DNA from: an uncultured Gammaproteobacteria bacterium
Lineage (GTDB): Bacteria > Patescibacteriota > Patescibacteriia > Magasanikbacterales > GWA2-37-8
Length of the DNA: 64,000 bases
Assembly: GCA_964561035.1 (NCBI GenBank)
Contig: CAZLNR010000001.1
Span: forward strand, 40,577 to 104,576
Reading direction: 5' to 3'
Numbering within the stretch: the stretch's first letter is position 1; each line of letters begins with the position of its first letter. The position numbers were made by a program, and so were the translations under genes. The notes under the pieces were generated by a model. The model was not told the DNA's origin. It did no database searches and saw nothing but the letters and a program-made list of their open reading frames with translations. Of this stretch, positions 3,144-54,349 are shown piece by piece.

Positions 3144-4934
3144 TTATGGCTTAACTATAGAGCCAGATCGCGATCCAGCATCGTTGGTATTGAGATTGTT
3201 TGAGATAGGCAGGTGGGAGATGTTTAAATTCTTTTTTACAATGCTGTCAGTGGCAGATAGAGAAATGGTATTTGTAAGACGTAGATTTTTGCCAACTTGG
3301 TTGCTGGTTGGGGTTACGGCTACTTCAAAATACAGACCTGTTTGACTGTTGGCCGGCAGTGAATAGTAGTCCCATGATACTGATCGGTTGGCTGAATTAA
3401 ATGCTAGAGCAGGGCCAATGGTTGTGCTTTGTTTTCCTGTAAATTCAACTCCTTCTGGCAAGGATGTTTCCAGGTTAACATTTTCTATAGCATTTGTAGT
3501 GTTAGCAATAGTGATAAAGACCCAATATTTGGTTGTTTTGCCTACTTGTGGAGGCAGTGAACCGCGGCCAAGCTGATCGCCTTCGGCTGTATAGTAGCGA
3601 GCTTCGGTACCAACAAAAGAAACTTCGGTAGCTAGGATTGTGGAAATTCCTGTGCCGCGTTGATTTATTGTCTGATCAGATATGCCCGCAATCTTTGCTT
3701 CAATGGTTGGAAAAATTTCCAAATGAGCGTTTTCAGTATTGGAAATATTAAGCGTTGGTTTAAGATAGATATTTATAACAAACGAATCGCTATTGCCTGG
3801 TTTTCCGTCAGCCAGGCTGGTTCGATTTGACCTGCTAAAGTAGATGCCTTTTTCTTCTAGCTGTGCATGAGCTTCAGCCGCAGTTTTTTTCCAATCAATT
3901 GAGTTTGGAAAATTTGAACTAATATGCAAGTTTGCGTCTGTGATGGCCATAGATCCTTTATTTTCCCAGGAAATACGAACAGGGATAGTCTGTCCCGGCT
4001 CTACAAAAGTAATATTATTAACAAGATCTACCCGGGCTTCAATTTGAGGTACGATGTTGTTTATGTTTTGTATGGAAGGCGCTTGGGAAATAGGGTGATT
4101 GTTTATGGTTATTATTGGTGCGATTGTTTTTTGGTAGTTACCCGGTGCGGACATGCTGGCAAAGGTGCCGGTAAAACTTCTATTACTATGCGCGGGTATA
4201 GTAATGTTTTTAGAGTCTTTTTCTGATATTGCTTGTCCGAAATTATGTTGCAATGAAATGTTTTCTAGTGTTTGGTCGCTCGTGTTGTGGAGGGTGTAAG
4301 TAAACTTAACAGGGCTGTTTGCGAATGTGGTGGTAGGAGAGGATAGCTCGCCCCAAAGTACGCTCTCTGATAGTTGTGAAATAAGCGAGGCAAGTTTTTG
4401 GTCGCGATTCTTTTTTGTATCGGGCCGATAAGATAAGTTGGCGATAAATTTTGATTCTTGAGAAGGATTGGACCAAAATCGGCCGTTAATTTCAAGTTGT
4501 TTGGATGCGCCCGGTTTAATTTCGGTGATTGCGGGAAAGATATATTGGTCTGAAAATATTTCTTTTGGTGTTTTGTTGCGGTCAATAATAAACCCTTCTG
4601 GAAGTTTAATGCCTAAAGAAACCTCCGATAAAGTATATTTACTATGGTTCGTATACTCCAAAGTTAGCCGCACATAATCACCGCTTTTAACGCGTGTTTC
4701 ACCCAAAGATAAAGACAGATCGATAAGTCCGGCGATGCTTGGTTTCCAGAAAAAAAGAAAAAGGCTGCCTGTCATCATAATGACTGCTGTAGCCAGAAGC
4801 ATGAGATCAAAGACAAATAATTTTTTTGCATGCTGGTAGATGCCGTGATAGTGTGTGTGATAATGATGTTTAAGAAAGCGAATCATATAAAAAATTGTAT
4901 AATTTATTATATCCTTTTTAGGGTCTTTATACAA
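3144..4934 (-). CDS. Membrane-anchored cell-surface protein with repeated beta-sandwich (DUF11/CARDB-like) modules
   Basis: 596-aa ORF with an N-terminal His-rich segment and one TM helix (LMLLATAVIMMTGSLFLFFW), followed by Ser/Thr/Asn-rich repeats. The start could be internal (MIRF at ~4886). Operonic with the HTH gene upstream. Confidence 0.55.
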   Translation of the reverse strand: MYKDPKKDIINYTIFYMIRFLKHHYHTHYHGIYQHAKKLFVFDLMLLATAVIMMTGSLFLFFWKPSIAGLIDLSLSLGETRVKSGDYVRLTLEYTNHSKYTLSEVSLGIKLPEGFIIDRNKTPKEIFSDQYIFPAITEIKPGASKQLEINGRFWSNPSQESKFIANLSYRPDTKKNRDQKLASLISQLSESVLWGELSSPTTTFANSPVKFTYTLHNTSDQTLENISLQHNFGQAISEKDSKNITIPAHSNRSFTGTFASMSAPGNYQKTIAPIITINNHPISQAPSIQNINNIVPQIEARVDLVNNITFVEPGQTIPVRISWENKGSMAITDANLHISSNFPNSIDWKKTAAEAHAQLEEKGIYFSRSNRTSLADGKPGNSDSFVINIYLKPTLNISNTENAHLEIFPTIEAKIAGISDQTINQRGTGISTILATEVSFVGTEARYYTAEGDQLGRGSLPPQVGKTTKYWVFITIANTTNAIENVNLETSLPEGVEFTGKQSTTIGPALAFNSANRSVSWDYYSLPANSQTGLYFEVAVTPTSNQVGKNLRLTNTISLSATDSIVKKNLNISHLPISNNLNTNDAGSRSGSIVKP

Positions 4935-6331: not shown

Positions 6332-7687
6332 ATGTCAAAAATTCTAATTAGACAATTAAAAACTTTGCGGCATAAAGAAGTTAAGCCGAATGAAGTGTGG
6401 TTAAAAAATAACCGCGATCTTTTATTGTCTCAGATTAGAAACACAGTTTCCGTACAGCCTGCCCGTAAAATGACTTTTGATAACTTTGTAGAATTTTTTG
6501 CAATCTTTTTGCCCCAATCATTTGTACATCGCGTAGTGCGACCAATGGTTGCGTTTATCTTGGTGTTGGCTATGGGCGTAGGTAGTTGGGTTGCCACAGT
6601 GAGTGCTTCGTACCAAGCTTTGCCTGGAGATTTTCTGTATTCCGCTAAGCGCGCTACTGAAACTATCCAAGTTAGGGGAGCCGAAGCTGTTGGTAATACC
6701 AATAACGCGGCAAAATTACATCTTGAATTTGCAAAGCGCCGAGCCGCTGAAACCAAAACAATCGTTTCTCAAAACAATCCAGAAAAGATAAATCTCGCAG
6801 CGCAAACAGTTGGTGATCTTAAAAATGAAATTCAAAATATCAACTCTAAATTAGAAGAGATTAAAACTTCAGACGATTCAGCAGGGGAATTGGTAAAAGA
6901 TATCAATAAAAATACTCAAGAAATAAACGGCGTATTAAAAGAAGTAAAAGTCAATTTACTAATTAGTACTGATAAAGAAAATTCTGCCGATCTTGCTACC
7001 CAGGTTTCAGAAGTAAAAAGCATCGTAAAAGACACGGCTGTCAAAGCTGTAGAGGTTATGGTTGTGAAGCATTTGCAAGGAGATGAATCTGTTTCTAAAG
7101 ACGATGTAAAAGAGGCGATTGCCACTCAGCTCCAAAGCGCAGCTAAAGATGTAGTTGAATCTAAAGATAGTATTACTGAAGTAAACAAAGCTATAAATGT
7201 TGTTAAAACGGAAGTAACAAATGCTATAGCAAAAGAAACTAAATATACTTCGCTGACAACTACAGCTGAGAATGCACAGTTATCAGAAAAAATTGAAGCA
7301 ACTTCAAAACAAACTCAGGAAGCTGTAACCAATTTTCAAAAAGTAAGCACTGAAACTGACAAAACAGTAAGCGAAGGAAAAGAGTTGTTGTCTCAAGACA
7401 ATCTTTCTTCCGCAATTGATAAGATTAAAGCGGTTAATGCGGCAACAGCAGAGGTGGAAAAAATTACCGACGCTACGTTAAAAGCCGTTCAAGAAATATT
7501 GCCGGTTGTTAGCGCGGTGGCAGATGCGGTGAATATACCAAGCAGTACAAGTGTTGCGGTTACTACTACGCCAAATTCAAGTACGTTTGGTATAGTGCTG
7601 AGTCAGTCTAGTACTATTAAGTTTGTCACGACTACCACGTCAACAGTGTCTTTAAAAACAACCACTACTCCAGCCGCAAAACCATAA
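6332..7687 (+). CDS. Putative anti-sigma factor, single-pass membrane protein (DUF5667-like) with long coiled-coil ectodomain
   Basis: Lies immediately downstream of the ECF sigma gene. One TM helix (RPMVAFILVLAMGVGSWVATV), followed by a K/E/T-rich helical region and a Thr-rich C-terminus. The family assignment is from memory of CPR anti-sigma arrangements. Confidence 0.55.
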   Translation: MSKILIRQLKTLRHKEVKPNEVWLKNNRDLLLSQIRNTVSVQPARKMTFDNFVEFFAIFLPQSFVHRVVRPMVAFILVLAMGVGSWVATVSASYQALPGDFLYSAKRATETIQVRGAEAVGNTNNAAKLHLEFAKRRAAETKTIVSQNNPEKINLAAQTVGDLKNEIQNINSKLEEIKTSDDSAGELVKDINKNTQEINGVLKEVKVNLLISTDKENSADLATQVSEVKSIVKDTAVKAVEVMVVKHLQGDESVSKDDVKEAIATQLQSAAKDVVESKDSITEVNKAINVVKTEVTNAIAKETKYTSLTTTAENAQLSEKIEATSKQTQEAVTNFQKVSTETDKTVSEGKELLSQDNLSSAIDKIKAVNAATAEVEKITDATLKAVQEILPVVSAVADAVNIPSSTSVAVTTTPNSSTFGIVLSQSSTIKFVTTTTSTVSLKTTTTPAAKP

Positions 7688-7957: not shown

Positions 7958-10900
7958 ATGACCGATGTATTAAAATCCGTAAAAAAAATCTTTACGGTTT
8001 CCGTTGTCGGCGCCACCATGTTGTGGTCCGTCGGCGTATCGGCTTTGTTGCCATCTGCTGCTAACGCTGCAGTTTGCCCAACACTTGCCGCTGGTGACAT
8101 GATCAAGGTATCTGGTAAAGCAGCTATCTATTCTGTTAACAAAGACTTAAAAGTTCTCTATTTCCCTTCAGGAGATGAGTTCAAGAGTTGGAATGAAAAC
8201 AATTCCTACGGTGGTTACGTAACAGTAACTCAGGAATGTTTTGATTCCTTACCTGTTCCTAGTGCATACCCAGGCGCTGTTAACTACCGCCCAGGTTCAT
8301 ACGTTGTGAAGAGACCTTCTTCAGATCAATTGTATGTTGTTTTGCCAGGAAATTCCTTAGCAAAAATTAGTACTACCGATGCTGCCGCTTTATATGGCGC
8401 TAGCTACAAAGTAATGACTGTTGCCGATGCATTCTGGCCTCACTATGTAAATAGAGGAGCCGATGTTGCTGGTACCGTTCATGAAGGTATGCTCGTCAGC
8501 AAAGATGGTAAGACTTGGTATGTAGCCGCTGGTAAAGTATTAAGAGAAGTAACATCAACCGGCATGACCGCTAACAGATTTAAATCTGCTTTCGTTCACG
8601 CTGTTCCTGCTGCTTACTTAACTGGTACTACAGTTGGTTCTCCACTTGCTGCCTTGGAGTCTGCTTTAACTAACAGAACTCAAGATGGAGCTATCGCTTC
8701 AACTCCTGTAACTGGAGGCAATCTCAGTGTTACTTTAGCTGCTGATAATCCAGCCGCTGGAAACATTGCAGACGGTTCCGCTTACAACAAAGTTTTGAAG
8801 CTTAACTTAAGCGCTTCTGCCGCTACTCAAGTTACTGGTATTACTCTTACTAAAACTGGTCTGATTGCTAACAGCAATGTTACCGGTGTTAGTGTTTGGG
8901 ATGCTGCTGGTAACCGTCACGGTGATGTGATGACTTCCTTGACTTCAGACAACAAAATTACTGTAAGTTTTGGATCTTACCCAATCCTCGTAGGCGCTGG
9001 CGCTTCTGAATCTTTAACCGTAGCCGTAAACATTGCACCTGCTGCAAATTCCGGCTTGGTAGGCTTTAGTGTTGCTGCTGCAACTGATGTTGCAAGCAAT
9101 GGTACAGTAGGTGGTTCATTCCCAATCGTTGGTAACCAAATGGCTATCATTGATGGTAATGCTTCTCTTGCTTCTACCACAATTTCCGGTCTTTCAGTTG
9201 GTGGTTCTTCCTCTCAACCTGCAAGTACCGCATCTGGTAACTTACAAATCGGCGATGTTCAAAAAGAAGTTGCTAAATTCAGATTTACCGAACAAAGCGG
9301 TAATGAAGATGTTGCAGTTTCAAAATTGACTTTCTATGTAGCTGGTACTATTCAAGATGCTGATCTCGCTAACTGGAGTGTTTACGCTCCAAGTGGAGAC
9401 AAGCTTGGTATGACTGCTGCAATGAGTAACCGTTATGTAACTGTTAACTTCACATCTCCTTACGTTGTACCTAAGAGTACAAGTCGTGATTTCACTGTTA
9501 AGGTTGACGTAGTTAACGGATCAACCCGTAACTTCCAAGTTCAATTACAGAGTGATTACGATGTAATGATGAGAGGTGTTACAACCGGATTCTATGTATT
9601 ACCAGCTAACTTCACCACAGCTGTGGCAAGTACAAATGGTTGGTTCAATATGGGTTCTGGTACATTGACCGTTAATAAAGCTCCTACTTCTCCATCTGGC
9701 AACGTTTCTGCTGGCGCACAAAATATTGTGTTAGCTAAATTTGACGTAAAAGCTGCTGGCGAAGGCATGGAATTACGTAAAATGGGCTTGGGAGTTGACC
9801 GCTCTGGATCAACTGGTGCAAGCAAGACTTTAACTGGTAACGTTGTTGTTCGTGATGCTACCGACGGTACTGTCTACTTAACTGTAGCCGGCACTGCTTC
9901 TGCATTGTATGCAGGTGGCGCTCAATACACATTGTCCAGTTACTTAAACTTGACTGCTGGTCAAACCAAGAGCTTAGAAGTTGTTGGTAGTATTGATGCT
10001 ACTGCTACTTCCGGACACAAATATCAAGTTCAAATCGGTAACTTCTATGGCAAGAGACTTTCTACCTTAGATTTTGCTGACAACTTACCAACTTCTGGCA
10101 ACACCAGTACTGCTGCTAACCAATTGACAGTTAACGCTACTTCATTGTCTTGCTATAAAGACACTTCAATGGGTAACGAAACTCGCGCAACTGGTTCAAC
10201 AGCTGTAATTGGTAAATATATTTGTACAGCTGGCACATCTGAAGATGTACGTTTGAGCGGACTTACCTTCGCTTTCAACGGAACTTCCGGTCAAGCTGCA
10301 AATAGCTTCCAGAATATGGCTTTGTGGGATGCAACTTCCGCTACTGAAGTACAGTTGGGAACAACCGTATCTACAGTTGCAAGTTCATCAAACAGCTACA
10401 CCTTTGATTTGACCGTTCCTAAGAGTCAAACTAAAGTATTGAAATTGAAAGCTTATGTTGTTCCTGGTTATACTGGAACAATGTCTTCCTCAATCTCAAG
10501 CGGTAGTTACGTAGGTAAAGACAGTAACAACACCGGTAGTATCTCTACCGCTGTTACCGGTCAAACCATTACTATCGGCTCCGGCACCTTAAACATCACA
10601 AGTGTTACAGATGCAACAACCATTTCTAAAGTATACGGACCTGAACAAACAGGCGTACAACTTGGTAAATGGAAATTCGCTGCTAATAATGATGATGTTG
10701 CTTTGAGCAAATTGACATTGCAAGCTGTGTACGCAAACGGAAGTGGCGCTGCTACAACCTTGGGTACATTTGGTTCATTGGCATTGTACGAAGATGGTGG
10801 AAGTACAGCTTTGGCTACTGCCAGCTTTGTAAACGGTGATGTTGTATTCAATAATTTCTCCTCAAACATTGCTATCAACAGCTATAAAGTATACGTATTG

Positions 10901-11677
10901 AAAGGTGATACCAACGCTTCCGGCGTTATTACTAATAACACAACTACACAATTTGTAGTAAAGAGTGATAGTAATACCGACATGGAAGCAAGAGCTGCTT
11001 CAGGCTCATTGCTTGGTACCGCTGAAATCAATTACAATCAATCAATTACAAGTGGTGTTGCAGAAAGCAATTTTGCTACTTCAACTGCCTACTTGTTCCA
11101 CGATGCTTACCCAACAGTAGCTAGTGAATCTTTGGGAACTGCCTTGTTTGTACCAGGAGCACAGACCCAAATTTTCAAATTCTCTGTTACCAACTCTGGT
11201 AAGACAGATTTAAGACTTGCGTCTACAACTGTAAGTGTAACTGTTACTGGTTTGGTAAGTAACGATTCAGTAAGCGACTTTAGATTGTATAGTGATAATG
11301 GTGGTAGTTTGGGCGATTTGCTTGCTCAAAACTCCGGATTTGTTACTTCTACTACTTCTACCTCAAACCCATTATCAGTAAACTTCAACACTGGCAATGA
11401 CCAGAATAGTTTGCTTGATAATTTGGTAGTTGCTCCAGGAACAAAGAGAACATTTATCGTAACCGCTAATACCTTGTCTGCAACTGTAAACAAGACCAGC
11501 GGTAAGATTTATATCTCTTCTAAGATTACTGGTTCAACTGGTTGGAGTGGAACAACCTGGAATACAGGTAATTTGTTCTACTTCTACACCCCAACTAACG
11601 GTAGTGAACAGGGTGCTTACTCTGCTTCAAACTCTTACGAAGTGCTCGGTCCTTCATTGGAATATAGCGCATCTTAA
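7958..11677 (+). CDS. Large secreted cell-surface protein (S-layer/major envelope protein candidate), 1239 aa
   Basis: Signal peptide MTDVLKSVKKIFTVSVVGATMLWSVGVSALLPSAANA-AV. Composition is dominated by T/S/A/G/V/N with very few charged residues. Codon usage differs from neighbours (aac, tac, ttc, ggt, gct, gtt, act preferred) as in highly expressed genes. A strong terminator follows. Confidence 0.7.
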   Translation: MTDVLKSVKKIFTVSVVGATMLWSVGVSALLPSAANAAVCPTLAAGDMIKVSGKAAIYSVNKDLKVLYFPSGDEFKSWNENNSYGGYVTVTQECFDSLPVPSAYPGAVNYRPGSYVVKRPSSDQLYVVLPGNSLAKISTTDAAALYGASYKVMTVADAFWPHYVNRGADVAGTVHEGMLVSKDGKTWYVAAGKVLREVTSTGMTANRFKSAFVHAVPAAYLTGTTVGSPLAALESALTNRTQDGAIASTPVTGGNLSVTLAADNPAAGNIADGSAYNKVLKLNLSASAATQVTGITLTKTGLIANSNVTGVSVWDAAGNRHGDVMTSLTSDNKITVSFGSYPILVGAGASESLTVAVNIAPAANSGLVGFSVAAATDVASNGTVGGSFPIVGNQMAIIDGNASLASTTISGLSVGGSSSQPASTASGNLQIGDVQKEVAKFRFTEQSGNEDVAVSKLTFYVAGTIQDADLANWSVYAPSGDKLGMTAAMSNRYVTVNFTSPYVVPKSTSRDFTVKVDVVNGSTRNFQVQLQSDYDVMMRGVTTGFYVLPANFTTAVASTNGWFNMGSGTLTVNKAPTSPSGNVSAGAQNIVLAKFDVKAAGEGMELRKMGLGVDRSGSTGASKTLTGNVVVRDATDGTVYLTVAGTASALYAGGAQYTLSSYLNLTAGQTKSLEVVGSIDATATSGHKYQVQIGNFYGKRLSTLDFADNLPTSGNTSTAANQLTVNATSLSCYKDTSMGNETRATGSTAVIGKYICTAGTSEDVRLSGLTFAFNGTSGQAANSFQNMALWDATSATEVQLGTTVSTVASSSNSYTFDLTVPKSQTKVLKLKAYVVPGYTGTMSSSISSGSYVGKDSNNTGSISTAVTGQTITIGSGTLNITSVTDATTISKVYGPEQTGVQLGKWKFAANNDDVALSKLTLQAVYANGSGAATTLGTFGSLALYEDGGSTALATASFVNGDVVFNNFSSNIAINSYKVYVLKGDTNASGVITNNTTTQFVVKSDSNTDMEARAASGSLLGTAEINYNQSITSGVAESNFATSTAYLFHDAYPTVASESLGTALFVPGAQTQIFKFSVTNSGKTDLRLASTTVSVTVTGLVSNDSVSDFRLYSDNGGSLGDLLAQNSGFVTSTTSTSNPLSVNFNTGNDQNSLLDNLVVAPGTKRTFIVTANTLSATVNKTSGKIYISSKITGSTGWSGTTWNTGNLFYFYTPTNGSEQGAYSASNSYEVLGPSLEYSAS

Positions 11678-19850: not shown

Positions 19851-19877
19851 CAAAACCCTCTTGACGAGGGTTTTTTG
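19851..19877 (+). terminator. Rho-independent terminator
   Basis: aaaaccctc-ttgac-gagggtttttt. Confidence 0.75.
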
Positions 19878-19887
19878 GTATGATATA

Positions 19888-19914
19888 TTATCACTCATGA
19901 GAGTTGAGTGATAA
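19888..19914. promoter_or_regulatory. CIRCE-like HrcA operator: TTATCACTC-N9-GAGTGATAA
   Basis: Matches the CIRCE consensus TTAGCACTC-N9-GAGTGCTAA with one symmetric substitution per arm. It lies 49 bp upstream of hrcA. Confidence 0.75.
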
Positions 19915-19962: not shown

Positions 19963-20643
19963 ATGGATAATCGCAAACATCAGCTGCTTACCATGGTAAT
20001 AGAACATTATATCAAAAATGCAGAACCTGTCGGTTCCAAATTTTTGGTTTCCATTGGCGGTCTTGATTTTGGTGAAGCTACGGTGCGAAATGAGTTGCGC
20101 GAACTTGAAGAGGAAGGTTTTTTAACGCATCCGCATACATCGGCTGGCAGAATACCAACTGAAAAAGGATATAGATATTATGTCGATCAGCTAAATTTTG
20201 AAAACAGCAATATCCCTAAAAATGATTTTCAGTCCTTGGTTAATGCGGTGGCAGCGATTGAAGATTATGAGTTGGCTAGAAAAAAATTGGCCAAAGCTGC
20301 TAAGGATCTTTCTAACGAAACAGTGGTAATCGCTTTTTCGCCAGAAAAAATATACTATACAGGCTTATCAAATCTATTTAATAAATCAGAGTTTGCCGAT
20401 GCGAATAGTGTAGCTAATGTTTCTCAAATATTTGATCATTTTGAAGATTATTTAGAAGATTTTTTTGATAAAGTAGAAGATTCGCCGCGTTATTTTATTG
20501 GCAGCGAAAATCCGTTTGATGAAACGCTAAGCGTAGTGTCGGCACGGTTTGGCAAAGAGGGTATAGTGGCTCTATTGGGACCAAAGCGAATGGATTATAA
20601 ATATAATTTTAGTTTAATTAAAAAATTATTGGAGATTATTTAA
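19963..20643 (+). CDS. hrcA: Heat-inducible transcription repressor HrcA (short form)
   Basis: N-terminal winged HTH ..YIKNAEPVGSKFL..EATVRNELRELEEEGFL..HTSAGRIPT. Position is ahead of grpE-dnaK-dnaJ. Confidence 0.85.
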   Translation: MDNRKHQLLTMVIEHYIKNAEPVGSKFLVSIGGLDFGEATVRNELRELEEEGFLTHPHTSAGRIPTEKGYRYYVDQLNFENSNIPKNDFQSLVNAVAAIEDYELARKKLAKAAKDLSNETVVIAFSPEKIYYTGLSNLFNKSEFADANSVANVSQIFDHFEDYLEDFFDKVEDSPRYFIGSENPFDETLSVVSARFGKEGIVALLGPKRMDYKYNFSLIKKLLEII

Positions 20644-20658
20644 ATAGCTTTTACTAAT

Positions 20659-21180
20659 ATGACTGATGAGCAAATTTTACCGGATGAGTCAGCTTTGCCA
20701 GAAAATGCAGGTGCTGCGGCTTGTGAAAATTGTGAAAAATGCAAAGCCGAAATGGAAGAATATAAATCAGGTTGGCAGCGTGCCTTGGCAGACTATAAGA
20801 ATTTACAAAAAGAAACAGCTGATATGCGCGGTGTTTGGGCCAAAGCCAGCGAGGAATATATTTTAGAAGAATTTATTCCAGTATATGAAAACTTTAAAAA
20901 AGCCTTTGCCCATAAAGACAGTATGCCTTCGGAAAATGGCTGGCAGCAATGGGCGGACGGTATCGGATATATCAAAAAACAGTTTGGAGATATTTTAAAA
21001 AGCTATCAGGTTGAAGAAATAAAAACAGTTGGTGAAAAATTTGATCCGCGCCTGCATGAAGCTATTGGCGAAGAAGAATCTGGCGAAGCACAGTCGGGAG
21101 TAGTCCTGAAAGAGGTAGAAGGCGGATACAAGCGAGGAGATAAAATCATTAAACCGGCACGAGTTATTATTAATAAATAA
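20659..21180 (+). CDS. grpE: Nucleotide exchange factor GrpE
   Basis: C-terminal GrpE signature ..FDPRLHEAIG..GYKRGDKIIKPARVIINK. Confidence 0.85.
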   Translation: MTDEQILPDESALPENAGAAACENCEKCKAEMEEYKSGWQRALADYKNLQKETADMRGVWAKASEEYILEEFIPVYENFKKAFAHKDSMPSENGWQQWADGIGYIKKQFGDILKSYQVEEIKTVGEKFDPRLHEAIGEEESGEAQSGVVLKEVEGGYKRGDKIIKPARVIINK

Positions 21181-21184
21181 TTAT

Positions 21185-22192
21185 ATGAGCGAGCGCAGGC
21201 CGTTATCAGGTGAATTGCCTGATGAACATGATATTGAAGAAGCATTTGAGCGTTTACAATCCCCGGAAGGTCCCGGGCAGGTTAGTAGAGATATTGCATT
21301 TGATTCTGAAGATGGACGCACTACTGTAGTGGTTGATGAGGATCTGGTTGGGCCTGAATCATCGAGTGATAGTGCTGGTAATGTAGAATTAAGTTTTGGT
21401 TTTCCAAGTGTTCAGCGCACTTTAGGCGGTGATGGCGCTGGTTTGACAGCAAGTGATTTTGCTTCATCTGTAGACGATTTGCACCCAACATATGACAAGG
21501 TTCTCAATGATGTTAATGCCATTGTGAAAGATACGACCGCAAAAGATTTGGTTGCGTTAGTTGGAGGCAGGATGGAAAAAACTCGTTCTGCTGACACTCA
21601 GGGTGTTATCAATTATACAGTTTTGCTCCGTTTGCTGGAAAGATATGCGCAAAATAAGGGGTATAAGAATAATCCTAATTTTTTCAAAATAGTTGAAGTT
21701 CTTAGAGCGATAGATAAGTTAGACTATAATTTAAGCGAACATATTTCTCTTAATAATGATTCGCCTCGCTCATACTATGTGTTGAGAAAAATTGCTTACA
21801 TTTTAAATTCAAAATCGCCAAAAGATATTTTGAAAATGGTTAGAAGCGGTGGAATAAATCCATATTTAATTGCGGAAGTTGGCAAACGATATCAGACAAG
21901 TAAAACTATCTCTCAAGATTTGAAAAATAAAGTGCAAGTTGTTCTTGATGAGCAAAGAGTATATGAACCATTCTATGATGTGGAAGATATGATAGACGAA
22001 AGTTTGGAAGATCAAAAACCGCTGCTTTCGTTATTGAAGGAAAAACATGTGAGCTTAGACACAGTCCGGGGTTTGTTAGAAGATTACAAATCTGGAGCTA
22101 GAAGACAAGAGCGTAAAATGCATAATTATAAAACAGCTCTTGAAACTATGTTAAGAGATCCACAGTCAATTATTTTATTGGAGGGTGTGTAA
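21185..22192 (+). CDS. Hypothetical protein inserted between grpE and dnaK (acidic disordered N-terminus plus helical C-domain)
   Basis: 335-aa ORF sitting 4 nt after the grpE stop and 55 nt before dnaK. No recognisable motif. Confidence 0.6.
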   Translation: MSERRPLSGELPDEHDIEEAFERLQSPEGPGQVSRDIAFDSEDGRTTVVVDEDLVGPESSSDSAGNVELSFGFPSVQRTLGGDGAGLTASDFASSVDDLHPTYDKVLNDVNAIVKDTTAKDLVALVGGRMEKTRSADTQGVINYTVLLRLLERYAQNKGYKNNPNFFKIVEVLRAIDKLDYNLSEHISLNNDSPRSYYVLRKIAYILNSKSPKDILKMVRSGGINPYLIAEVGKRYQTSKTISQDLKNKVQVVLDEQRVYEPFYDVEDMIDESLEDQKPLLSLLKEKHVSLDTVRGLLEDYKSGARRQERKMHNYKTALETMLRDPQSIILLEGV

Positions 22193-22247
22193 TTATTTAT
22201 AAACAATCTTGTTAATTTTTAAATAAATCTAATTTCAATATATTCAT

Positions 22248-24149
22248 ATGTCCAAAGTTCTCGGAATTGATCTTGGTACCACCAACAGCTGTGTTGCAGT
22301 CATTGAAGGTGGGCAGCCAAAAGTGTTAGAAAATAAAGAAGGTAATCGCACCACGCCATCTATTGTGGCTATGTCTAAAACCGGAGAGCGGTTGGTTGGT
22401 CAGTTGGCTAAGCGCCAGGCCGTAACTAACCCGCAAAATACTTTGTATTCAGTGAAGCGCCTTATTGGCCGCCGTTTTGAAGATGCTGAAGTGCAACGCG
22501 ATTTGTCGTTATTGCCGTTTAAAATTGTTAAAAGCGATGACAAGGTAAAAATTGAAATGCAGGGCAAAGAATATACCCCTCAAGAAATTTCTGCCATGGT
22601 ATTGCAAAAGTTAAAAAGCGATGCGGAAGAAAAATTGGGAGAAAAAATTACCGAAGCCGTTATTACCGTACCGGCATATTTTGACGACTCGCAAAGACAA
22701 GCTACTAAAGACGCGGGCACTATCGCAGGCTTAAATGTGTTGCGTATTATTAATGAACCAACCGCAGCCGCATTGGCATATGGTTTTGATAAGAAAAAAG
22801 ATCAAAAAATTGCAGTCTACGATTTGGGTGGCGGCACTTTTGATATCTCTATTTTGGAAGTGAGTGCCGACACAGTGCAGGTATTATCTACCAATGGCGA
22901 CACTCACTTGGGCGGCGATGATTTTGATCAAAAAATAATCTCATGGATTTTGGAAGAATTTAAAAAAGACCAAGGTATCGATTTGAGCAAAGATCCATTG
23001 GCCTTGCAGCGCATTAAAGAGGCTGCGGAAAAAGCCAAGATTGAGCTCTCTACAGCCCAAGAAACCGAAGTTAATCAGCCGTTTATTACTTCTGATTCTT
23101 CCGGACCAAAACATTTGGTAATGAAATTAACTCGCGCTAAATTGGAAGAGCTGGTTGGAGATTTGGTTGAAAAAACCTTAGTGCCAGTTCGCAAGGCATT
23201 GGAAGATGCAAAATTATCAGCTAACGATTTGCACGAAGTGGTGATGGTTGGTGGTATGACTCGCATGCCGCTCGTATTGCAAACTGTAGAAAAGTTTTTC
23301 AATAAAAAACCAAATATTAGTGTAAACCCAGATGAAGTGGTTGCTATCGGCGCAGCTGTTCAAGCTGGCGTGTTAAAAGGCGAAGTGCATGATGTGTTAT
23401 TGCTTGATGTTATTCCTCTATCATTTGGTTTAGAGACCATGGGCGGAGTAATGACTAAGCTTATCGAACGCAACACCACTATTCCGACATCAAAGAGCCA
23501 AGTATTTTCTACAGCAGCGGACAATCAGCCAGCGGTAGAAATTAATGTGTTGCAAGGTGAGCGCTCTATGGCAGCTGACAATAAAACACTTGGCCGATTT
23601 ATTTTGGATGGTATTCCACCGGCTCCACGCGGCGTACCGCAAGTAGAAGTAACTTTTGATATTGACGCTAATGGTATTTTAAATGTAAAGGCTAAAGATA
23701 AGGCTACCAACAAAGAACAGTCAATTCGCATTGAAGCTTCCACTGGCTTGTCCAAAGAAGAAGTGGAAAAAATGAAACAAGATGCTGAAGTGCATGCCGC
23801 TGAAGATAAAAAGAAGCAGGAGCTTATTGAGGCGCGCAACATTGCCGATACCATGGTGTATACTACCGAAAAAATGATGAAAGAAGTAGAAGAGAAAAAA
23901 GTGGCGGTGACTGATGATGAGAAAAATAAAATTAATGATGCATTAAAAGCCGTAAAAGAAGTTAAAGATAAAGATGATGTAGAGGCAATTAAAAAAACAT
24001 CAGAGGAGCTATCGAAAGTTGCTCAAGCGGTTGGTGCTAAAATGTATCAAGCCGGACAGGCTGGCCAGCCAGGCGCTGATGCTGCGGCTTCGGGCGGAGA
24101 AGAAAAGAAAGATGAACAGGGTCCGATTGAAGGTGAAGTGGTAAAATAA
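22248..24149 (+). CDS. dnaK: Chaperone DnaK (Hsp70)
   Basis: [31 protein letters not shown]; 633 aa with a C-terminal acidic tail. Confidence 0.95.
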
Positions 24150-24209: not shown

Positions 24210-24686
24210 ATGTCTGAGCATCAAGAGTCGGTCGGTTCTTTGGAAGCATTTAGATCGGAAATTCAGCGAATAGTTGACCGGCTTCGTCATGTAGATGGTA
24301 CGCTACAAAAAATTACCGACGTGAAAGAGTTGGATAATGACGCCTTAGCTATTTGGAATAATCTTAAAAATATTATACGTGATATTAGCCAGTTGGATGT
24401 AAACATGAACAATAAGGAGGTTCAAAAAAACTTTGATTATTTGTTAGAGAGAAGTCGTAAATTAGCCAATGATACAAAAAATTTGGCTGAAAGTAATGCG
24501 GCGCAATCAAAGAACTCGGCATGTGAATTTTATGCTTGGATTAATAATCGTATTCCTATAGGGCAAATTCAACTTGCGCTTGAGACTCTTGTGGACAGTG
24601 GTTCTGCTAAAAGTGCTGTAGAAGATTTGCAAGATTTGTCTAAAACTTCTATAGATTTATTAGCTGGGAAAGATGCGGCGGCATAA
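24210..24686 (+). CDS. Hypothetical helical protein inserted between dnaK and dnaJ
   Basis: 158-aa ORF, 60 nt after dnaK and 6 nt before dnaJ. No recognisable motif. Confidence 0.55.
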   Translation: MSEHQESVGSLEAFRSEIQRIVDRLRHVDGTLQKITDVKELDNDALAIWNNLKNIIRDISQLDVNMNNKEVQKNFDYLLERSRKLANDTKNLAESNAAQSKNSACEFYAWINNRIPIGQIQLALETLVDSGSAKSAVEDLQDLSKTSIDLLAGKDAAA

Positions 24687-24692
24687 AAGAAT

Positions 24693-25763
24693 ATGGCCAA
24701 CAAAGATTATTACAAAATTCTCGGCGTAGAAAAAAATGCTTCGGCTGATGAGATAAAAAAAGCATTTAAAAAAGCAGCTATGCAGCATCATCCAGACCGA
24801 CCAGGCGGAGATGAGGCAAAGTTTAAAGAAGTAAACGAAGCCTATCAGGTTTTAAGCGATACTGAAAAACGCCAGCGCTACGACCAATTCGGCTCTGATT
24901 TTGAACAGCAGGGCGGTTTTGGCAATGGGGCTGGGTGGGAAGATGTTATGAGTGCGTTCAGAGGCGGTGGTTTTTCCGGAGGGGATTTCGGCGATATTTT
25001 TGGCGACTTATTTGGCAGTAGGGGAGGCCAGCGTCAAAATCGCGGACAAGATATTCAGGTTGATGTAGAGATAGATTTCAAAGAAGCTGCGTTTGGTGCA
25101 GAAAAAGAAATTACTTTGCGCAAACAAAATGCTTGTGATATTTGCCGCGGCTCTGGAGCAGAGCCAGGGTCAAAAATGGAAAAATGTTCTACGTGCAATG
25201 GTCGCGGCCAGGTAACCAAAATACAACATACTTTTTTAGGCACGATGCAAGCAGCGGCTCCTTGTGATGCGTGTCAGGGCAGGGGAGAAAAACCTGCGAA
25301 AAAATGCAAGCATTGCCATGGGTCTGGGGTTGCGCAAAGCAATTCTAATATTAAAATTAAAATACCTGGAGGCATAGAAAGCGGGCAGTCTATTCGTTTA
25401 GATGGCTATGGTGAGGCTGCTTCATTTGGCGGTGTGCCGGGCAGTCTATATGTGCGTGTGCGCGTAAAACCGTTAGCCGGTTTTTCACGAGACGGTTCAG
25501 ATGTATACACAGAGCAAGAAATTAGTTTTGTGCAGGCGGTGCTGGGAGACAAAATTCAAGTGCAAACCCTTGATGAAATGGTAACGCTTGTCGTGCCAGA
25601 AGGTGTTGAGTCAGGGCAATTGATTCGTATTAAACACAAAGGCATGAACAAACTGGGGGGTGGTAATCGTGGAGACCACTATGTTAAAATAAAAATCAGG
25701 GTTCCTAAAAAGATTAGCAAAGACACAAAAAAACGTCTTGAAGAGTTGCGAGCGGAGCTTTAG
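24693..25763 (+). CDS. dnaJ: Co-chaperone DnaJ
   Basis: J-domain [12 protein letters not shown], Gly/Phe-rich linker, four CxxCxGxG zinc-finger repeats. Confidence 0.9.
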
Positions 25764-25772
25764 CCCGTATTC

Positions 25773-26282
25773 ATGTCTAATAAGCATACAAAACAAGCTT
25801 TTGAGCGGTTTTATCTCGATCATATAGACAAGGTGTATCGCTTTGTTTTTTTTCGTGTTAATTGTGATAAGGATTTGGCGCAGGATTTGGTCTCGGAAAT
25901 TTTTATGAAGGCGCTCAAAAATTTTGCAGATTACGACGAATCGATTAGTAGATCCGCCTGGCTGATGACGATTGCTAAAAACCATATTATTAATTATTAT
26001 CGCGACACTAAGCCTATCGCGGAACTACCCCAGGACGAAGACGGTGAAATCCTTGACTCTTTTTGGCTAATTTCTGCTAAAAATGTATTTAAAAAGAACG
26101 AAAATGCCCGTTTTGTACAGGAGTTTTTGAGTGAATTAGACGAGGTCAGCCGAGAGATTGTAGCTTTTCATTATATTTATGGGTATAGTTATGCAGAGAT
26201 AGCTGAAATGAAGAAAATGACTGAAACAGCAGTAAAAGTGGCAGCTCATCGCGCTATCAAAAAAATGTCATCTCACATATGA
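25773..26282 (+). CDS. RNA polymerase sigma factor, ECF family (second copy)
   Basis: Region 2 (..DLVSEIFMKAL..) and region 4 HTH (YSYAEIAEMKKMTETAVKVAAHRAIKKM). Starts 10 nt after the dnaJ stop. Confidence 0.8.
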   Translation: MSNKHTKQAFERFYLDHIDKVYRFVFFRVNCDKDLAQDLVSEIFMKALKNFADYDESISRSAWLMTIAKNHIINYYRDTKPIAELPQDEDGEILDSFWLISAKNVFKKNENARFVQEFLSELDEVSREIVAFHYIYGYSYAEIAEMKKMTETAVKVAAHRAIKKMSSHI

Positions 26283-26998
26283 GTTTTAAAATAAAATACA
26301 ACCTATCTAAACTAAAAGGGTCTGCTAAGCCAGACGCTGTGTTTAAGAAACAGTTACATACAGATTTAATGTCTGCTTGGAATGGTTCTTTTGGCAAAAC
26401 ACCGTGGTACCATGGTGTGCTCGCTCATCGCATAGCGGCTAGCGCTCTCTTGATAATTATTTTGGCTACTAGCAGTGGCGCATATGCCTATGCAAGCCCA
26501 GAAGTTACCGAAGGAAGCGTGCTGTTTCCAGTTAAAGAAGCTATGGAGCGCGTAGAAGAAGTTACTAAATTTACCCCCGAATCTAAGGCCGCGTTCTATT
26601 TAAAGCAAATTGAACGTCGAGAAAAAGAACGATTAGTCTTGCAGACAAAGAAACCTGCAGCGTTAAAAGAAAAATATGAAACTGTTCAAATAGCCACAAC
26701 CACAGATGCTGATGAAAAAACAGCCAGCTTGCCGCAGCCTGATACAGGCACAGTTGGCAAAAAGGCTCGCGCTACAGATGGTAGTGATGAAGGCGAACAA
26801 GTAAAAAAAATTAATCGCAGTATTGATAACACCGAAAAAAAATTAGAAAAAGCAAAAGAGTTAATGGAAAAGCTTGCTGAAAAAAATACTGAACGTCAGA
26901 AAGAAATTAGAGCCAAAATTGAAAAACGGCTTGAAGAAAGAAAAAAACGCCTAGAAAAATTAGAAGAAAAGCAGTTGGAGCATGCGTTTGAAGACTAA
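26279..26998 (+). CDS. Putative anti-sigma factor (single TM, DUF5667-like ectodomain, coiled-coil C-terminus)
   Basis: ATGA overlap with the sigma gene. TM helix AASALLIIILATSSGAYAYA, then a LFPVKEAMERV segment resembling the first anti-sigma (FLYSAKRATETI). Confidence 0.5.
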   Translation: MSFKIKYNLSKLKGSAKPDAVFKKQLHTDLMSAWNGSFGKTPWYHGVLAHRIAASALLIIILATSSGAYAYASPEVTEGSVLFPVKEAMERVEEVTKFTPESKAAFYLKQIERREKERLVLQTKKPAALKEKYETVQIATTTDADEKTASLPQPDTGTVGKKARATDGSDEGEQVKKINRSIDNTEKKLEKAKELMEKLAEKNTERQKEIRAKIEKRLEERKKRLEKLEEKQLEHAFED

Positions 26999-28323: not shown

Positions 28324-29676
28324 TTAATAATTGGTCTTCCAAATACCATCCTTGGTTTTGCTTATAAAGTATAATATTTTATTTTTGGTATCTGCCTGCG
28401 CTGTATGTATTTGTTCGGCTATAAGCTCATGGCTGACCAGATAGTATGGAAATAAAATCGTGCTGCGCTGGTTCCATATAAGGGCGAGTGTGTTATATTG
28501 ATCAAGCGGCAAAACAGTATGCAGTTGTTCACCCGATCTGCTTAGCAGCTGAGGCTCTTCGCCGTCGCTATATGTCCATAATTCCCATTGCGACCATAAT
28601 AGCCACCAGTTATTATATGGCGAAACAAAGAAGTTTGTCGTGTCAATTGGATGTAGCCCGTTTTGGTTGGCGAGTATGGCTTTTTTTCCATATAAATTGC
28701 CGATGAGTGCTGTATTTCCTTTGACTTTTAAAAGAGCCGGTTTGTTGCTATTTGGCTGGTCGTTGGTTGTAAAATAAGTTTTATTAACAGTTTGAACAAT
28801 AGTAGGGAAACCTAAAATATCTTTGGTTATTATATAGGCATCGGTATTGGTTGCGAATTGCAAAGCCCATAGTTCGTTTGCTTCCACAGACCAATCTAAA
28901 TATGTATTTGCGGTAACCAGCTGTGATTTATTGGTAGTCGGAGTGTATAAAAAAATCTGATTTTTTGTACTGTAATATACTTGAGGTTCGCTGGTTTGGT
29001 TCCAGATAAATTTTGTAATTGGCGTACCGGAGCCTATAGTAAATAATTTTTTAGTTTCCGCGTTTAATATGTATATCTGCGCAAACGGCTGTTCTGTCGG
29101 AGCGATGACGGCCAGGTTATTTTTTTCATCCCATGTATATTGGAAACGCAGGTCGCTGTCTAATCCGGTAATCTGGGTTTTTTCTTGAGTGCGCACATTC
29201 CATAGCCAAGTAAAAAAACCTTTATCAGTTTGAGTTGTAAATAGTATGTATGCGCCATCGGCTGATACAGAAAAGTCATTTATCGTGCCGCTTATCGCCA
29301 GTTCCAGTTTTGGTTTTTTTATTAAGCGTATTTCTTTAATATAATTTGTTTGTTTGTTTTTTACCTCTATTTCTTTGGACCAATCAATATACCCTTCGGC
29401 GCTTAGGCGGGTGTTATAAGTTGCGGGCGTGATGTTATTAAGGCGAATAGGCAATGTTTTCTGCAGTTTGATATTATTAAGGTAGGCAACCGATTCTTGC
29501 GGCTCTATATCAATACTGATTGATCCAGTTTCTTTGAGTAGGCCGTTATGCCAGTCATAGCGATAGCCGGCAGTATACATGATTAAAAGAGGGGATATGA
29601 TAAAAAAAGCGCTGATAAAAAAAATAAACATGAACTGTCTGATCGGCTTAGTGAATTTTGTTCCTGGATATTCCAT
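28324..29676 (-). CDS. Membrane-anchored beta-propeller (TolB/WD40-like) protein, unknown function
   Basis: N-terminal TM helix, then repeated W/Y-rich beta-strand blocks (..YILFTTQTDKGFFTWLWNV.., ..WNQTSEPQVYYS..). Confidence 0.5.
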   Translation of the reverse strand: MEYPGTKFTKPIRQFMFIFFISAFFIISPLLIMYTAGYRYDWHNGLLKETGSISIDIEPQESVAYLNNIKLQKTLPIRLNNITPATYNTRLSAEGYIDWSKEIEVKNKQTNYIKEIRLIKKPKLELAISGTINDFSVSADGAYILFTTQTDKGFFTWLWNVRTQEKTQITGLDSDLRFQYTWDEKNNLAVIAPTEQPFAQIYILNAETKKLFTIGSGTPITKFIWNQTSEPQVYYSTKNQIFLYTPTTNKSQLVTANTYLDWSVEANELWALQFATNTDAYIITKDILGFPTIVQTVNKTYFTTNDQPNSNKPALLKVKGNTALIGNLYGKKAILANQNGLHPIDTTNFFVSPYNNWWLLWSQWELWTYSDGEEPQLLSRSGEQLHTVLPLDQYNTLALIWNQRSTILFPYYLVSHELIAEQIHTAQADTKNKILYFISKTKDGIWKTNY

Positions 29677-53961: not shown

Positions 53962-54349
53962 GTTGCGCGCTTATATGGTATACTATATATATCGTTATAT
54001 GATGATTCTTATTTTAGAAAAATTATTTTTGGAAGCAATACTTGATGTTTTTTATTTTCCGATTTGGTGGTATACCGCCGGTGCGGTTCGTGCCGGCAAA
54101 CGATGCTTGTTGTGGTTGGCGCGCGGCAACGAAACTTTGGCTCCAGGCATATGGTTGACGCATATTTTTGTGCCAATGTTTGGGCAATATGATTGGCAGG
54201 GCAGAATCGTTAGTTTTTTTATGCGCTTGGTTCAGATTATTTTTCGCACTGCCGCTTTAGCAGTTTGGCTGGCTTGCTGTTTTTTATTTTTTATGTTGTG
54301 GCTGGCACTGCCTTTGTTAGTATTTTACGGAATTTTATATGGAGTTTAA
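53960..54349 (+). CDS. Hypothetical small membrane protein, translationally coupled to the Clp-like gene
   Basis: 129 aa (start may be internal), 3 to 4 TM helices; its end overlaps the next ORF start by 11 nt. Confidence 0.4.
   Translation: MLRAYMVYYIYRYMMILILEKLFLEAILDVFYFPIWWYTAGAVRAGKRCLLWLARGNETLAPGIWLTHIFVPMFGQYDWQGRIVSFFMRLVQIIFRTAALAVWLACCFLFFMLWLALPLLVFYGILYGV

Follow-up and report, generated by a model that had tools for sequence, protein, structure and literature searches.

We analyzed an open reading frame (ORF) of 335 amino acids, ORF335, that lies inside the heat shock operon of a 64,000-nt stretch of contig CAZLNR010000001.1 (the window). ORF335 starts with ATG and occupies positions 21185..22192 of the + strand. 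Immediately upstream is grpE (20659..21180, +; PF01025, E = 5e-37), and downstream is dnaK (22248..24149, +; PF00012, E = 5e-262; TIGR02350, 970 bits; NF001413, 990 bits). Only 4 nt (TTAT) separate grpE from ORF335, and a 55-nt spacer (22193..22247, +) follows it before dnaK. A preliminary description, made from the sequence alone, had placed the ORF between these two genes with exactly these gaps, and both the coordinates and the gene identities agree with it. The operon begins with hrcA (19963..20643, +), which encodes a short form of HrcA with 226 amino acids (PF01628, E = 9e-16; TIGR00331, E = 2e-49 in two stretches), and includes dnaJ at 24693..25763 (+; TIGR02349, E = 6e-122). Another ORF, of 158 amino acids (24210..24686, +), sits between dnaK and dnaJ.

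Upstream of hrcA, at a distance of 49 nt, is a perfect inverted repeat, TTATCACTC-N9-GAGTGATAA (19888..19914, +), which by pattern is a CIRCE operator (controlling inverted repeat of chaperone expression), the binding site of HrcA. This is the single match in the 64-kb window when up to three mismatches are allowed, and none was expected from 100 shuffles. A consensus scan also returned a sigma70-like promoter abutting CIRCE (TTGACG-17-TATATT, with TG; 19861..19889, +; 10 of 12 matches); this is a pattern match only. Scanning for terminators gave none on the + strand in any of the intergenic gaps between hrcA and dnaJ, and the spacer between ORF335 and dnaK has neither a + strand promoter nor a terminator match. 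Because there is one CIRCE and one promoter 5′ of hrcA, and no + strand terminator in the gaps of the operon, cotranscription is the simplest reading. ORF335 is thus likely cotranscribed with the Hsp70 genes under HrcA control, as the preliminary description had suggested, and so would be produced along with GrpE and DnaK upon heat shock.

A word-indexed search of 5.8 billion proteins recovered, apart from ORF335 itself, only two relatives, with 89% and 70% identity. Both orthologues lie between grpE and dnaK, and their wider synteny is the same. We calculated the ratio of nonsynonymous to synonymous substitution (dN/dS) by the Nei-Gojobori method. Against the two orthologues, dN/dS was 0.10 to 0.14 for the whole of ORF335, with 0.08 to 0.18 for residues 1 to 100 and 0.11 to 0.14 for residues 101 to 335; for comparison, grpE gave about 0.08 and dnaK 0.014 to 0.027. 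The reading frame is uninterrupted in orthologues down to 42% identity (335, 335, 334, and 339 amino acids). The preliminary description had held that a lack of purifying selection, with dN/dS near 1, and absence from the dnaK operons of close relatives would count against this gene. Nothing near such a value was seen. Conservation across the operons of relatives is mixed: the 89% and 70% orthologues occupy the same position, but two loci of relatives with 74 to 77% identical GrpE (L018 and L019; L numbers denote relatives' loci throughout) hold unrelated ORFs there instead. Since its orthologues share its position and dN/dS is this low, ORF335 is not a chance ORF; judged by its pattern of substitution, it is a genuine protein-coding gene under purifying selection.

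The protein has two parts. Its N-terminal region, residues 1 to 95 (21185..21469, +), is acidic and predicted to be disordered, with conserved short motifs. The first 89 residues hold 20 Asp/Glu versus 6 Lys/Arg, for a net charge of −14 and an isoelectric point of 4.1, while the helical domain is near neutral. Hydropathy analysis found no hydrophobic segment, so the product is predicted to be soluble and presumably cytoplasmic. We built an AlphaFold2 model on an alignment of 15 sequences. Residues 1 to 95 had a predicted local distance difference test score (pLDDT) below 50, and an all-helical domain followed, with a pLDDT of 82 to 93 over most of residues 103 to 335 and a predicted template modeling score of 0.64. 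The preliminary description was right about the kind of architecture, an acidic, disordered N terminus joined to a helical C domain, and wrong about the boundary, which pLDDT and charge place around residue 95 to 100 rather than 120.

The helical domain consists of three tandem units: R1 (residues 99 to 193; 21479..21763, +), R2 (residues 194 to 259; 21764..21961, +), and R3 (residues 260 to 335 plus the stop codon; 21962..22192, +). A hidden Markov model (HMM) of the repeat unit matched them with E = 1e-27, 4e-19, and 7e-14, respectively, and hhalign aligned R1 with R2 at E = 1.2e-11, R1 with R3 at E = 5e-7, and R2 with R3 at E = 2e-6. R1 contains a class-specific loop at residues 129 to 140; R1 was modeled with a pLDDT of 72 to 87, save for a low-confidence loop at residues 130 to 137, and R2 reached about 87 to 93. 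A unit has about 65 residues and four helices, with a consensus of roughly Y..VLKK.E.IL....AKDLV.LVK.GKIH.SVL.RLLEKY..G.R.DP....KKIEEAL.EL, and alleles carry two to four of them. In the model, the tandem repeats form an alpha-solenoid-like domain. The C-terminal motif of R3, LxxLLxxYxxGxR..(DP)....K.I...L, is shared by single-repeat ORFs in L007 and L037. Distant alleles also have, in the N-terminal arm, a motif of the form FPSxxxxLGG ... LxxSxF..VDxLHP(D/T)Y. Residues conserved in the family are K168, F166, L122, and L150, along with the FPS..GG and LxxLLxxY motifs. Selection restrains the arm no less than the folded part, and we read this as a sign that it contains functional linear motifs and is more than a spacer.

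The guanine-plus-cytosine (GC) content is 0.44 over the part of the gene encoding the arm and 0.32 to 0.34 over the part encoding the repeats, with about 0.39 to 0.43 in grpE and dnaK. The drop over 21150-22200 is compatible with a domain rich in Lys, Asn, Ile, and Tyr, or with an origin outside this genome. Low GC in the coding sequence of the C domain and the lack of any match to a database family are also what one could cite for regarding ORF335 as spurious or as a decaying, functionless remnant. That idea is effectively refuted by the selection and conservation data, namely the low dN/dS and the intact frame; the confidently predicted fold and the internal repeats kept across alleles speak against it as well.

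HMMER, run exhaustively over 1.84 billion cluster representatives, returned 13 proteins at E ≤ 1e-3, all from one clade and with identities to ORF335 as low as about 21%. The preliminary description had called the protein lineage specific, and this result bears it out. The profile-HMM search it had proposed gave no family match: ORF335 as a single ORF found nothing in Pfam, NCBIfam, PHROGs, or PADLOC, and Pfam was also negative with 15 family members. Searches of the PDB by sequence and by profile were likewise negative. A profile scan of reference genomes, with the closer alignment, matched a single genome, L011 (CAZHYG010000001.1). L011 encodes a 239-amino-acid YidC without the large periplasmic domain and a short HrcA with CIRCE control, and has a GC content of about 38 to 40%; this gene content suggests a reduced-genome lineage, possibly one of the candidate phyla radiation type.

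We then asked where the family members sit. All 10 alleles that we looked up, including that of the window and extending down to 20 to 27% identity, are directly 3′ of grpE and, where the contig reaches that far, 5′ of dnaK. Genome assemblies with a member of the family include GCA_020049755.1 and GCA_964496095.1. When the repeat-unit HMM was run against the window and 95 fetched loci, its matches were confined to ORFs of the grpE-dnaK slot. They included a single-repeat slot ORF of 155 amino acids from a lineage whose GrpE is just 54% identical and, as a weak match, the last of the three ORFs arrayed in L007. Among the loci recovered, ORF335 therefore represents a small, previously undescribed family that is confined to the grpE-dnaK slot. 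Across the clade, DnaK is 88 to 99% identical and HrcA 74 to 97%, against 20 to 30% for the ORF335 alleles.

The low identity between alleles does not follow the divergence of their neighbors. L003 and L013 have nearly the same operon (GrpE 99% identical, DnaK 98%, DnaJ 100%, HrcA 97%, Band7 100%, and extracytoplasmic function [ECF] sigma factor 100%) and yet carry slot proteins that are 27% identical, of 334 and 358 amino acids with three and four repeats. At the DNA level these two loci are 86 to 97% identical in hrcA and grpE. Precisely over the ORF the identity drops to background, and starting 28 nt 5′ of the dnaK start it recovers to about 90%. L007 and L012 repeat the pattern, with 95% identical GrpE and 27% identical slot proteins, and with three slot ORFs in L007 versus one in L012. 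In swapped pairs, DNA homology covers the 3′ end of grpE, the upstream recombination flank, and ends about 10 nt inside the ORF. It resumes in the dnaK-proximal 25 nt or so of the spacer, the downstream flank, and a segment before dnaK, ...TAATTTCATTCAT ATG, is conserved in the loci. When the window is compared with L006 and L011, at a similar flank divergence (about 88 to 89%), ORF335 is retained at 89% identity with a dN/dS of 0.10.

Remnants of grpE are also present in the slot. The spacer that follows the first cassette ORF of L007 is a relic copy of the 3′ end of grpE (ATTAAACCAGCGCGAGTTATTATTTGTAAATAA), and L007, L010, and L014 have a degenerate second grpE tail 5′ of the ORF. The whole L007 slot (8001-10468) is an array of a 330-amino-acid family member, the relic grpE tail, a 185-amino-acid ORF that ends in the C-terminal motif of the family, and a 296-amino-acid ORF in which a membrane anchor is predicted and one repeat is weakly matched. 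This arrangement has the look of cassettes stacked through recombination at grpE tails. Divergence in place would require an absurd dN/dS, and the grpE relics support replacement; a swapping of alleles, with homologous recombination in the conserved flanks (the 3′ end of grpE and the 5′ region of dnaK), is thus far more economical. In this respect the slot resembles the replacement islands of capsule, O-antigen, and hsdS loci, which share its sharp breakpoints at conserved flanks, divergent content in near-identical backgrounds, and recombination footprints. Unlike those islands, it lies inside an essential, cotranscribed chaperone operon, its products are predicted to be cytoplasmic, and its alleles are mostly homologous to each other. 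Full-text literature searches returned no description of a replacement island inside a dnaK operon.

To see what the slot holds more widely, we surveyed at least 80 metagenomic loci anchored on GrpE (31 to 80% identical), 55 of which contained both grpE and dnaK; ORFs were called simply, as + strand ORFs of at least 60 amino acids. Among the loci listed with GrpE at 45% or more, the slot is occupied in 37 of 40, by one to five ORFs and with gaps that reach 3 kb, while 10 of the 15 listed with more distant GrpE (below 45%) have a tight grpE-dnaK junction. The commonest occupant, present in 27 of these 40 loci, is an ORF of about 146 amino acids directly 3′ of grpE that belongs to the HSP20 family (PF00011, E = 7e-22), a small heat shock protein (sHSP). 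Since hsp20 is the commonest occupant in the wider lineage, the ancestral order in the group is hrcA-grpE-hsp20-dnaK-dnaJ, and the repeat protein sits at the hsp20 position in the subclade of the window. No hsp20 was found in the window or at any ORF335-bearing locus, within the sequence available at those loci. The sHSP shares with ORF335 its place directly 3′ of grpE and its presumed regulation, and differs in fold, a beta-sandwich versus an all-alpha repeat.

Other relatives have QueF, a Vut_1/YhhQ-type transporter, an HD/DUF4202 protein, membrane proteins, or singletons in the grpE-dnaK slot; singletons make up 48 of 160 slot ORFs when both variable slots of the operon are pooled among the loci listed. 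The QueF gene (L051, 7149-7595; PF14489, E = 3e-25) and the Vut_1/YhhQ-type transporter gene (L032, 6489-7154; PF02592, E = 3e-54) are queuosine salvage genes inside the heat shock operon of more distant relatives. Because the slot is permissive and alleles of 27% identity replace each other in near-identical backgrounds, we regard ORF335, from this comparison of loci, as an accessory, exchangeable gene of the heat shock operon and not as a fixed core cochaperone.

The second slot, between dnaK and dnaJ, behaves similarly. Its 158-amino-acid ORF in the window has no Pfam or NCBIfam match but is related to ORFs in the same slot of L003, L006, L009, and L010 (BLASTP E = 1e-8 to 1e-24). These form a separate lineage-specific family, which we call KJ, of about 145 to 160 amino acids with the motifs LESFR.EIK.I, ELD...M..W...K.I, and F.AWL.N. 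The window has one copy, L003 (5618-6556) and L006 (12080-13006) have two each, and the family also occupies the slot in L007 (12519-13765). A clean whole-gene insertion or deletion distinguishes L003 from L013 in this slot, and the contents found there in the window give way to others in its 89% relative, L011. Against PADLOC profiles, the 158-amino-acid ORF gave weak, subthreshold, coiled-coil-like matches only. Kinship among the ORF335, KJ, and slot sHSP families was considered and rejected: hhalign probabilities of 0.1 to 0.3% indicate three unrelated families.

Several neighbors of ORF335 have features of their own. HrcA has 226 amino acids against the 338 positions of the TIGR00331 model, and roughly its middle third seems to be missing. 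This short form is present in all of the approximately 75 surveyed loci, whatever the grpE-dnaK slot holds: the ORF335 family, hsp20, other cargo, or nothing. GrpE has a cysteine cluster, CENCEKC, at residues 22 to 28 (20722-20742, +), immediately ahead of the conserved EYKSGWQRALAD helix. Of 18 close relatives, 16 have a C..C motif at this position, as do many of the more distant ones. The cluster is not usual in GrpE and might sense redox state or metals. Directly 3′ of dnaJ (25773-26998, +) are an ECF-type sigma factor gene (Sigma70_r2/r4 in relatives) and a 239-amino-acid ORF overlapping it by 4 nt. The latter has no family match in relatives and is a putative anti-sigma factor. The pair adjoins the heat shock operon in every locus of the clade, and the putative anti-sigma factor evolves fast, with 39% identity where the sigma factor has 65%.

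Farther away, positions 54339-57104 (+) encode a Clp/Hsp100-type AAA+ ATPase of 921 amino acids with about 185 extra N-terminal residues. It scores 521 bits versus ClpB/ClpA equivalog cutoffs of 1,232 and may be an atypical disaggregase partner for the DnaK of the window. Three large ORFs lack an NCBIfam match at E ≤ 1e-5: 7958-11677 (+), 1,239 amino acids; 3144-4934 (−), 596 amino acids; and 6332-7687 (+), 451 amino acids. The first of these is conserved in the relatives L001 and L002. ARAGORN also called an 89-nt tRNA-Gln(ctg) at 28925-29013 (+). This call is not in Rfam at the gathering threshold, lies inside a 450-amino-acid ORF on the opposite strand, and is probably a false positive.

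A lineage-specific cochaperone was among the roles suggested in the preliminary description, and we compared ORF335 with the known classes. On this point the suggestion found no backing: no similarity to the J-domain, GrpE, BAG, HspBP1, or tetratricopeptide repeat (TPR) class was found. A J-domain identity was prompted by an HPD tripeptide at the start of repeat 1. PF00226 had no match at E ≤ 1 in ORF335 or any of 15 family members, and hhalign against J-domains from the same loci gave probabilities of 0.5 to 0.9%. The tripeptide itself is HPT in ORF335 and HPD, NPD, NPK, KND, RPE, or DPG in other alleles. There was no match to the GrpE domain PF01025, and a canonical GrpE is encoded immediately 5′ of the ORF. 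Neither the armadillo repeats of HspBP1/Fes1 nor the BAG three-helix bundle was matched in sequence or fold. No Pfam family of any kind was common to more than 2 of 15 members, and no repeat family (such as TPR, Sel1, HEAT, ARM, or PPR) scored below E = 0.04.

The alpha-crystallin domain PF00011 was not matched in Pfam either, and hhalign against the slot sHSP family gave 0.3%. By eye, the stretch RPLSGELPDEHDIEEAFERL...DIAFDSEDGRTTVVVDE of the N-terminal arm resembles the arm and first strands of an sHSP; HMMER aligned it in the same register at −1.4 bits, which we take as a chance resemblance, and we dropped the notion of an sHSP relic. Profiles of defense systems in PADLOC gave zero matches for ORF335, three divergent alleles, and three associated slot ORFs. 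An origin from phages or mobile elements was rejected as well: PHROGs matches had E > 0.1, tblastn against 50,697 phage records and a search of IMG/VR returned none, and the best Foldseek match in BFVD had E = 0.28.

Our favored interpretation, to which we give a probability of roughly 0.4, is that ORF335 is a stress-induced, noncatalytic scaffold or adaptor for protein-protein interactions that acts beside the DnaK system. The short motifs conserved in the N-terminal arm would dock onto the conserved chaperone machinery, with its DnaK of 88 to 99% identity across the clade, and the solenoid surface, which diverges fast, would hold or bring in a partner or client that varies. The role would be dispensable and accessory, in its logic comparable to that of the sHSP in the same slot of sister lineages, and not that of a core J-protein or nucleotide exchange factor. 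We favor this because the linkage to grpE and dnaK outlasts sequence identity, coexpression is likely, the motifs of the arm are constrained, and sister lineages keep a holdase in the slot. Conservation and variability would both make sense if a constant docking element were paired with a solenoid surface that varies.

Several points weigh against such an adaptor. ORF335 has no sequence or fold similarity to any known cochaperone, adaptor, or regulator. The slot also accepts QueF, Vut_1, HD/DUF4202, and membrane proteins, the many singletons, and the unrelated ORFs of L018 and L019, and position alone is therefore weak evidence of a chaperone function. Exchange through flanking homology would hold the family in the slot whatever its function. 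Finally, a typical DnaK client motif has a hydrophobic core with basic flanks, and the acidic arm is unlike this.

The main rival to an adaptor, possible but in our view rather doubtful, is that the ORF335 and KJ families are cargo driven by conflict, under diversifying or frequency-dependent selection imposed, for example, by phages or mobile elements that hijack or target the Hsp70 machine. ORF335 would then be a guard, decoy, or immunity-like module merely expressed from a strong stress-inducible operon. This accounts well for alleles of 20 to 35% identity that are swapped between backgrounds with 97 to 100% identical neighbors and breakpoints at the edges of the ORF, for repeat numbers of two to four and arrays of one to three ORFs, and for a second variable slot with whole-gene insertions, deletions, and replacements. 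Purifying selection within an allele class is likewise typical of a balanced allelic series. It sits poorly with the lack of any PADLOC, PHROGs, phage genome, viral contig, or viral structure match, with the lack of a nuclease, NTPase, toxin, or other effector domain in ORF335, and with the fact that no phage or mobile element genes lie beside the slot in any locus examined. A bolder form of the idea makes grpE-dnaK and dnaK-dnaJ dedicated cassette slots in which deeply divergent alleles of stress-induced proteins are shuffled by homologous recombination and kept by balancing or diversifying selection, a DnaK-coupled conflict module with ORF335 as its main component, acting, for example, as guards or decoys that shield or watch over Hsp70 in the face of phage hijacking. 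This we hold to be unlikely.

The regulator that the preliminary description had offered as another option would take the form of a heat shock feedback protein, one that binds HrcA or modulates the ECF sigma/anti-sigma pair after dnaJ. Its model is HagF (CT016/CTL0271) of Chlamydia, which is repressed by HrcA, binds it, and blocks its dimerization (PMC12154930). HagF and ORF335 are both lineage specific, cytoplasmic, and at least partly helical, and both would be under HrcA/CIRCE control, which for ORF335 is predicted from the unique CIRCE and the terminator-free gaps before it in an operon shared with hrcA. The unusual short HrcA of the window might also seem to invite such a partner. But this form is universal in the wider lineage regardless of slot contents and does not covary with ORF335, so we discarded it as a link. 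An HrcA that is 74 to 97% conserved is also a poor fit for a fixed interface with alleles of 20 to 30% identity. HagF, moreover, is encoded elsewhere in its genome, outside the operon that holds hrcA, grpE, and dnaK, and is conserved across Chlamydia rather than swapped. We therefore think a regulator of this kind quite improbable.

Lower still do we rate a catalytic cochaperone, whether an ATPase stimulator of a degenerate J-like kind or a nucleotide exchange factor built as an alpha-solenoid, of the HspBP1/Fes1 type. The HPD at the start of repeat 1 in several alleles speaks for it, as does the consensus LLEKYAEGKRxDP....KKIEEAL, which is loosely like helix II-loop-helix III of a J-domain. 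In its layout, with a disordered arm followed by a domain of helical repeats, ORF335 is also loosely reminiscent of Fes1/HspBP1, which have a flexible N-terminal arm and alpha-helical repeats. Those proteins are eukaryotic, however, and their ARM repeat has 42 residues versus the four-helix unit of about 65 in ORF335. When a J-like or exchange factor role was tested by the comparisons above, it was unsupported.

For an adaptor, the clearest precedent that an extra gene in a dnaK operon can encode a real chaperone partner is DafA of Thermus thermophilus, a small protein (about 8 kDa) whose gene accompanies those of the dnaK operon. DafA brings together a DnaK3-DnaJ3-DafA3 complex, from which substrate displaces it (PMC3727329). 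Like ORF335, it is a lineage-restricted, noncanonical accessory of the dnaK operon; unlike ORF335, it has no repeat domain or long acidic arm, and no sequence relationship is expected. DafA is not known to be allelically hypervariable. As the nearest precedents, DafA and HagF are functional and not homologous ones.

Few gene clusters of bacteria are as conserved as the Hsp70 operons, and not many accessory genes are known for them (DafA, HagF, and the sHSPs). ORF335 adds a new family of repeat proteins, without detectable relatives or a known fold, that is found strictly within the heat shock operon of an uncultured lineage with an apparently small genome. With ten natural alleles and conserved cognate chaperones, it is a defined, cloneable target. 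Should the conflict module prove true, it would be a new type of hypervariable locus within an essential chaperone operon. If ORF335 binds DnaK or GrpE, it would represent a new class of bacterial Hsp70 partners with natural specificity variants. If it binds neither, the locus shows that a hypervariable island can exist inside an essential chaperone operon, a point of interest for conflict or niche adaptation in reduced genomes.

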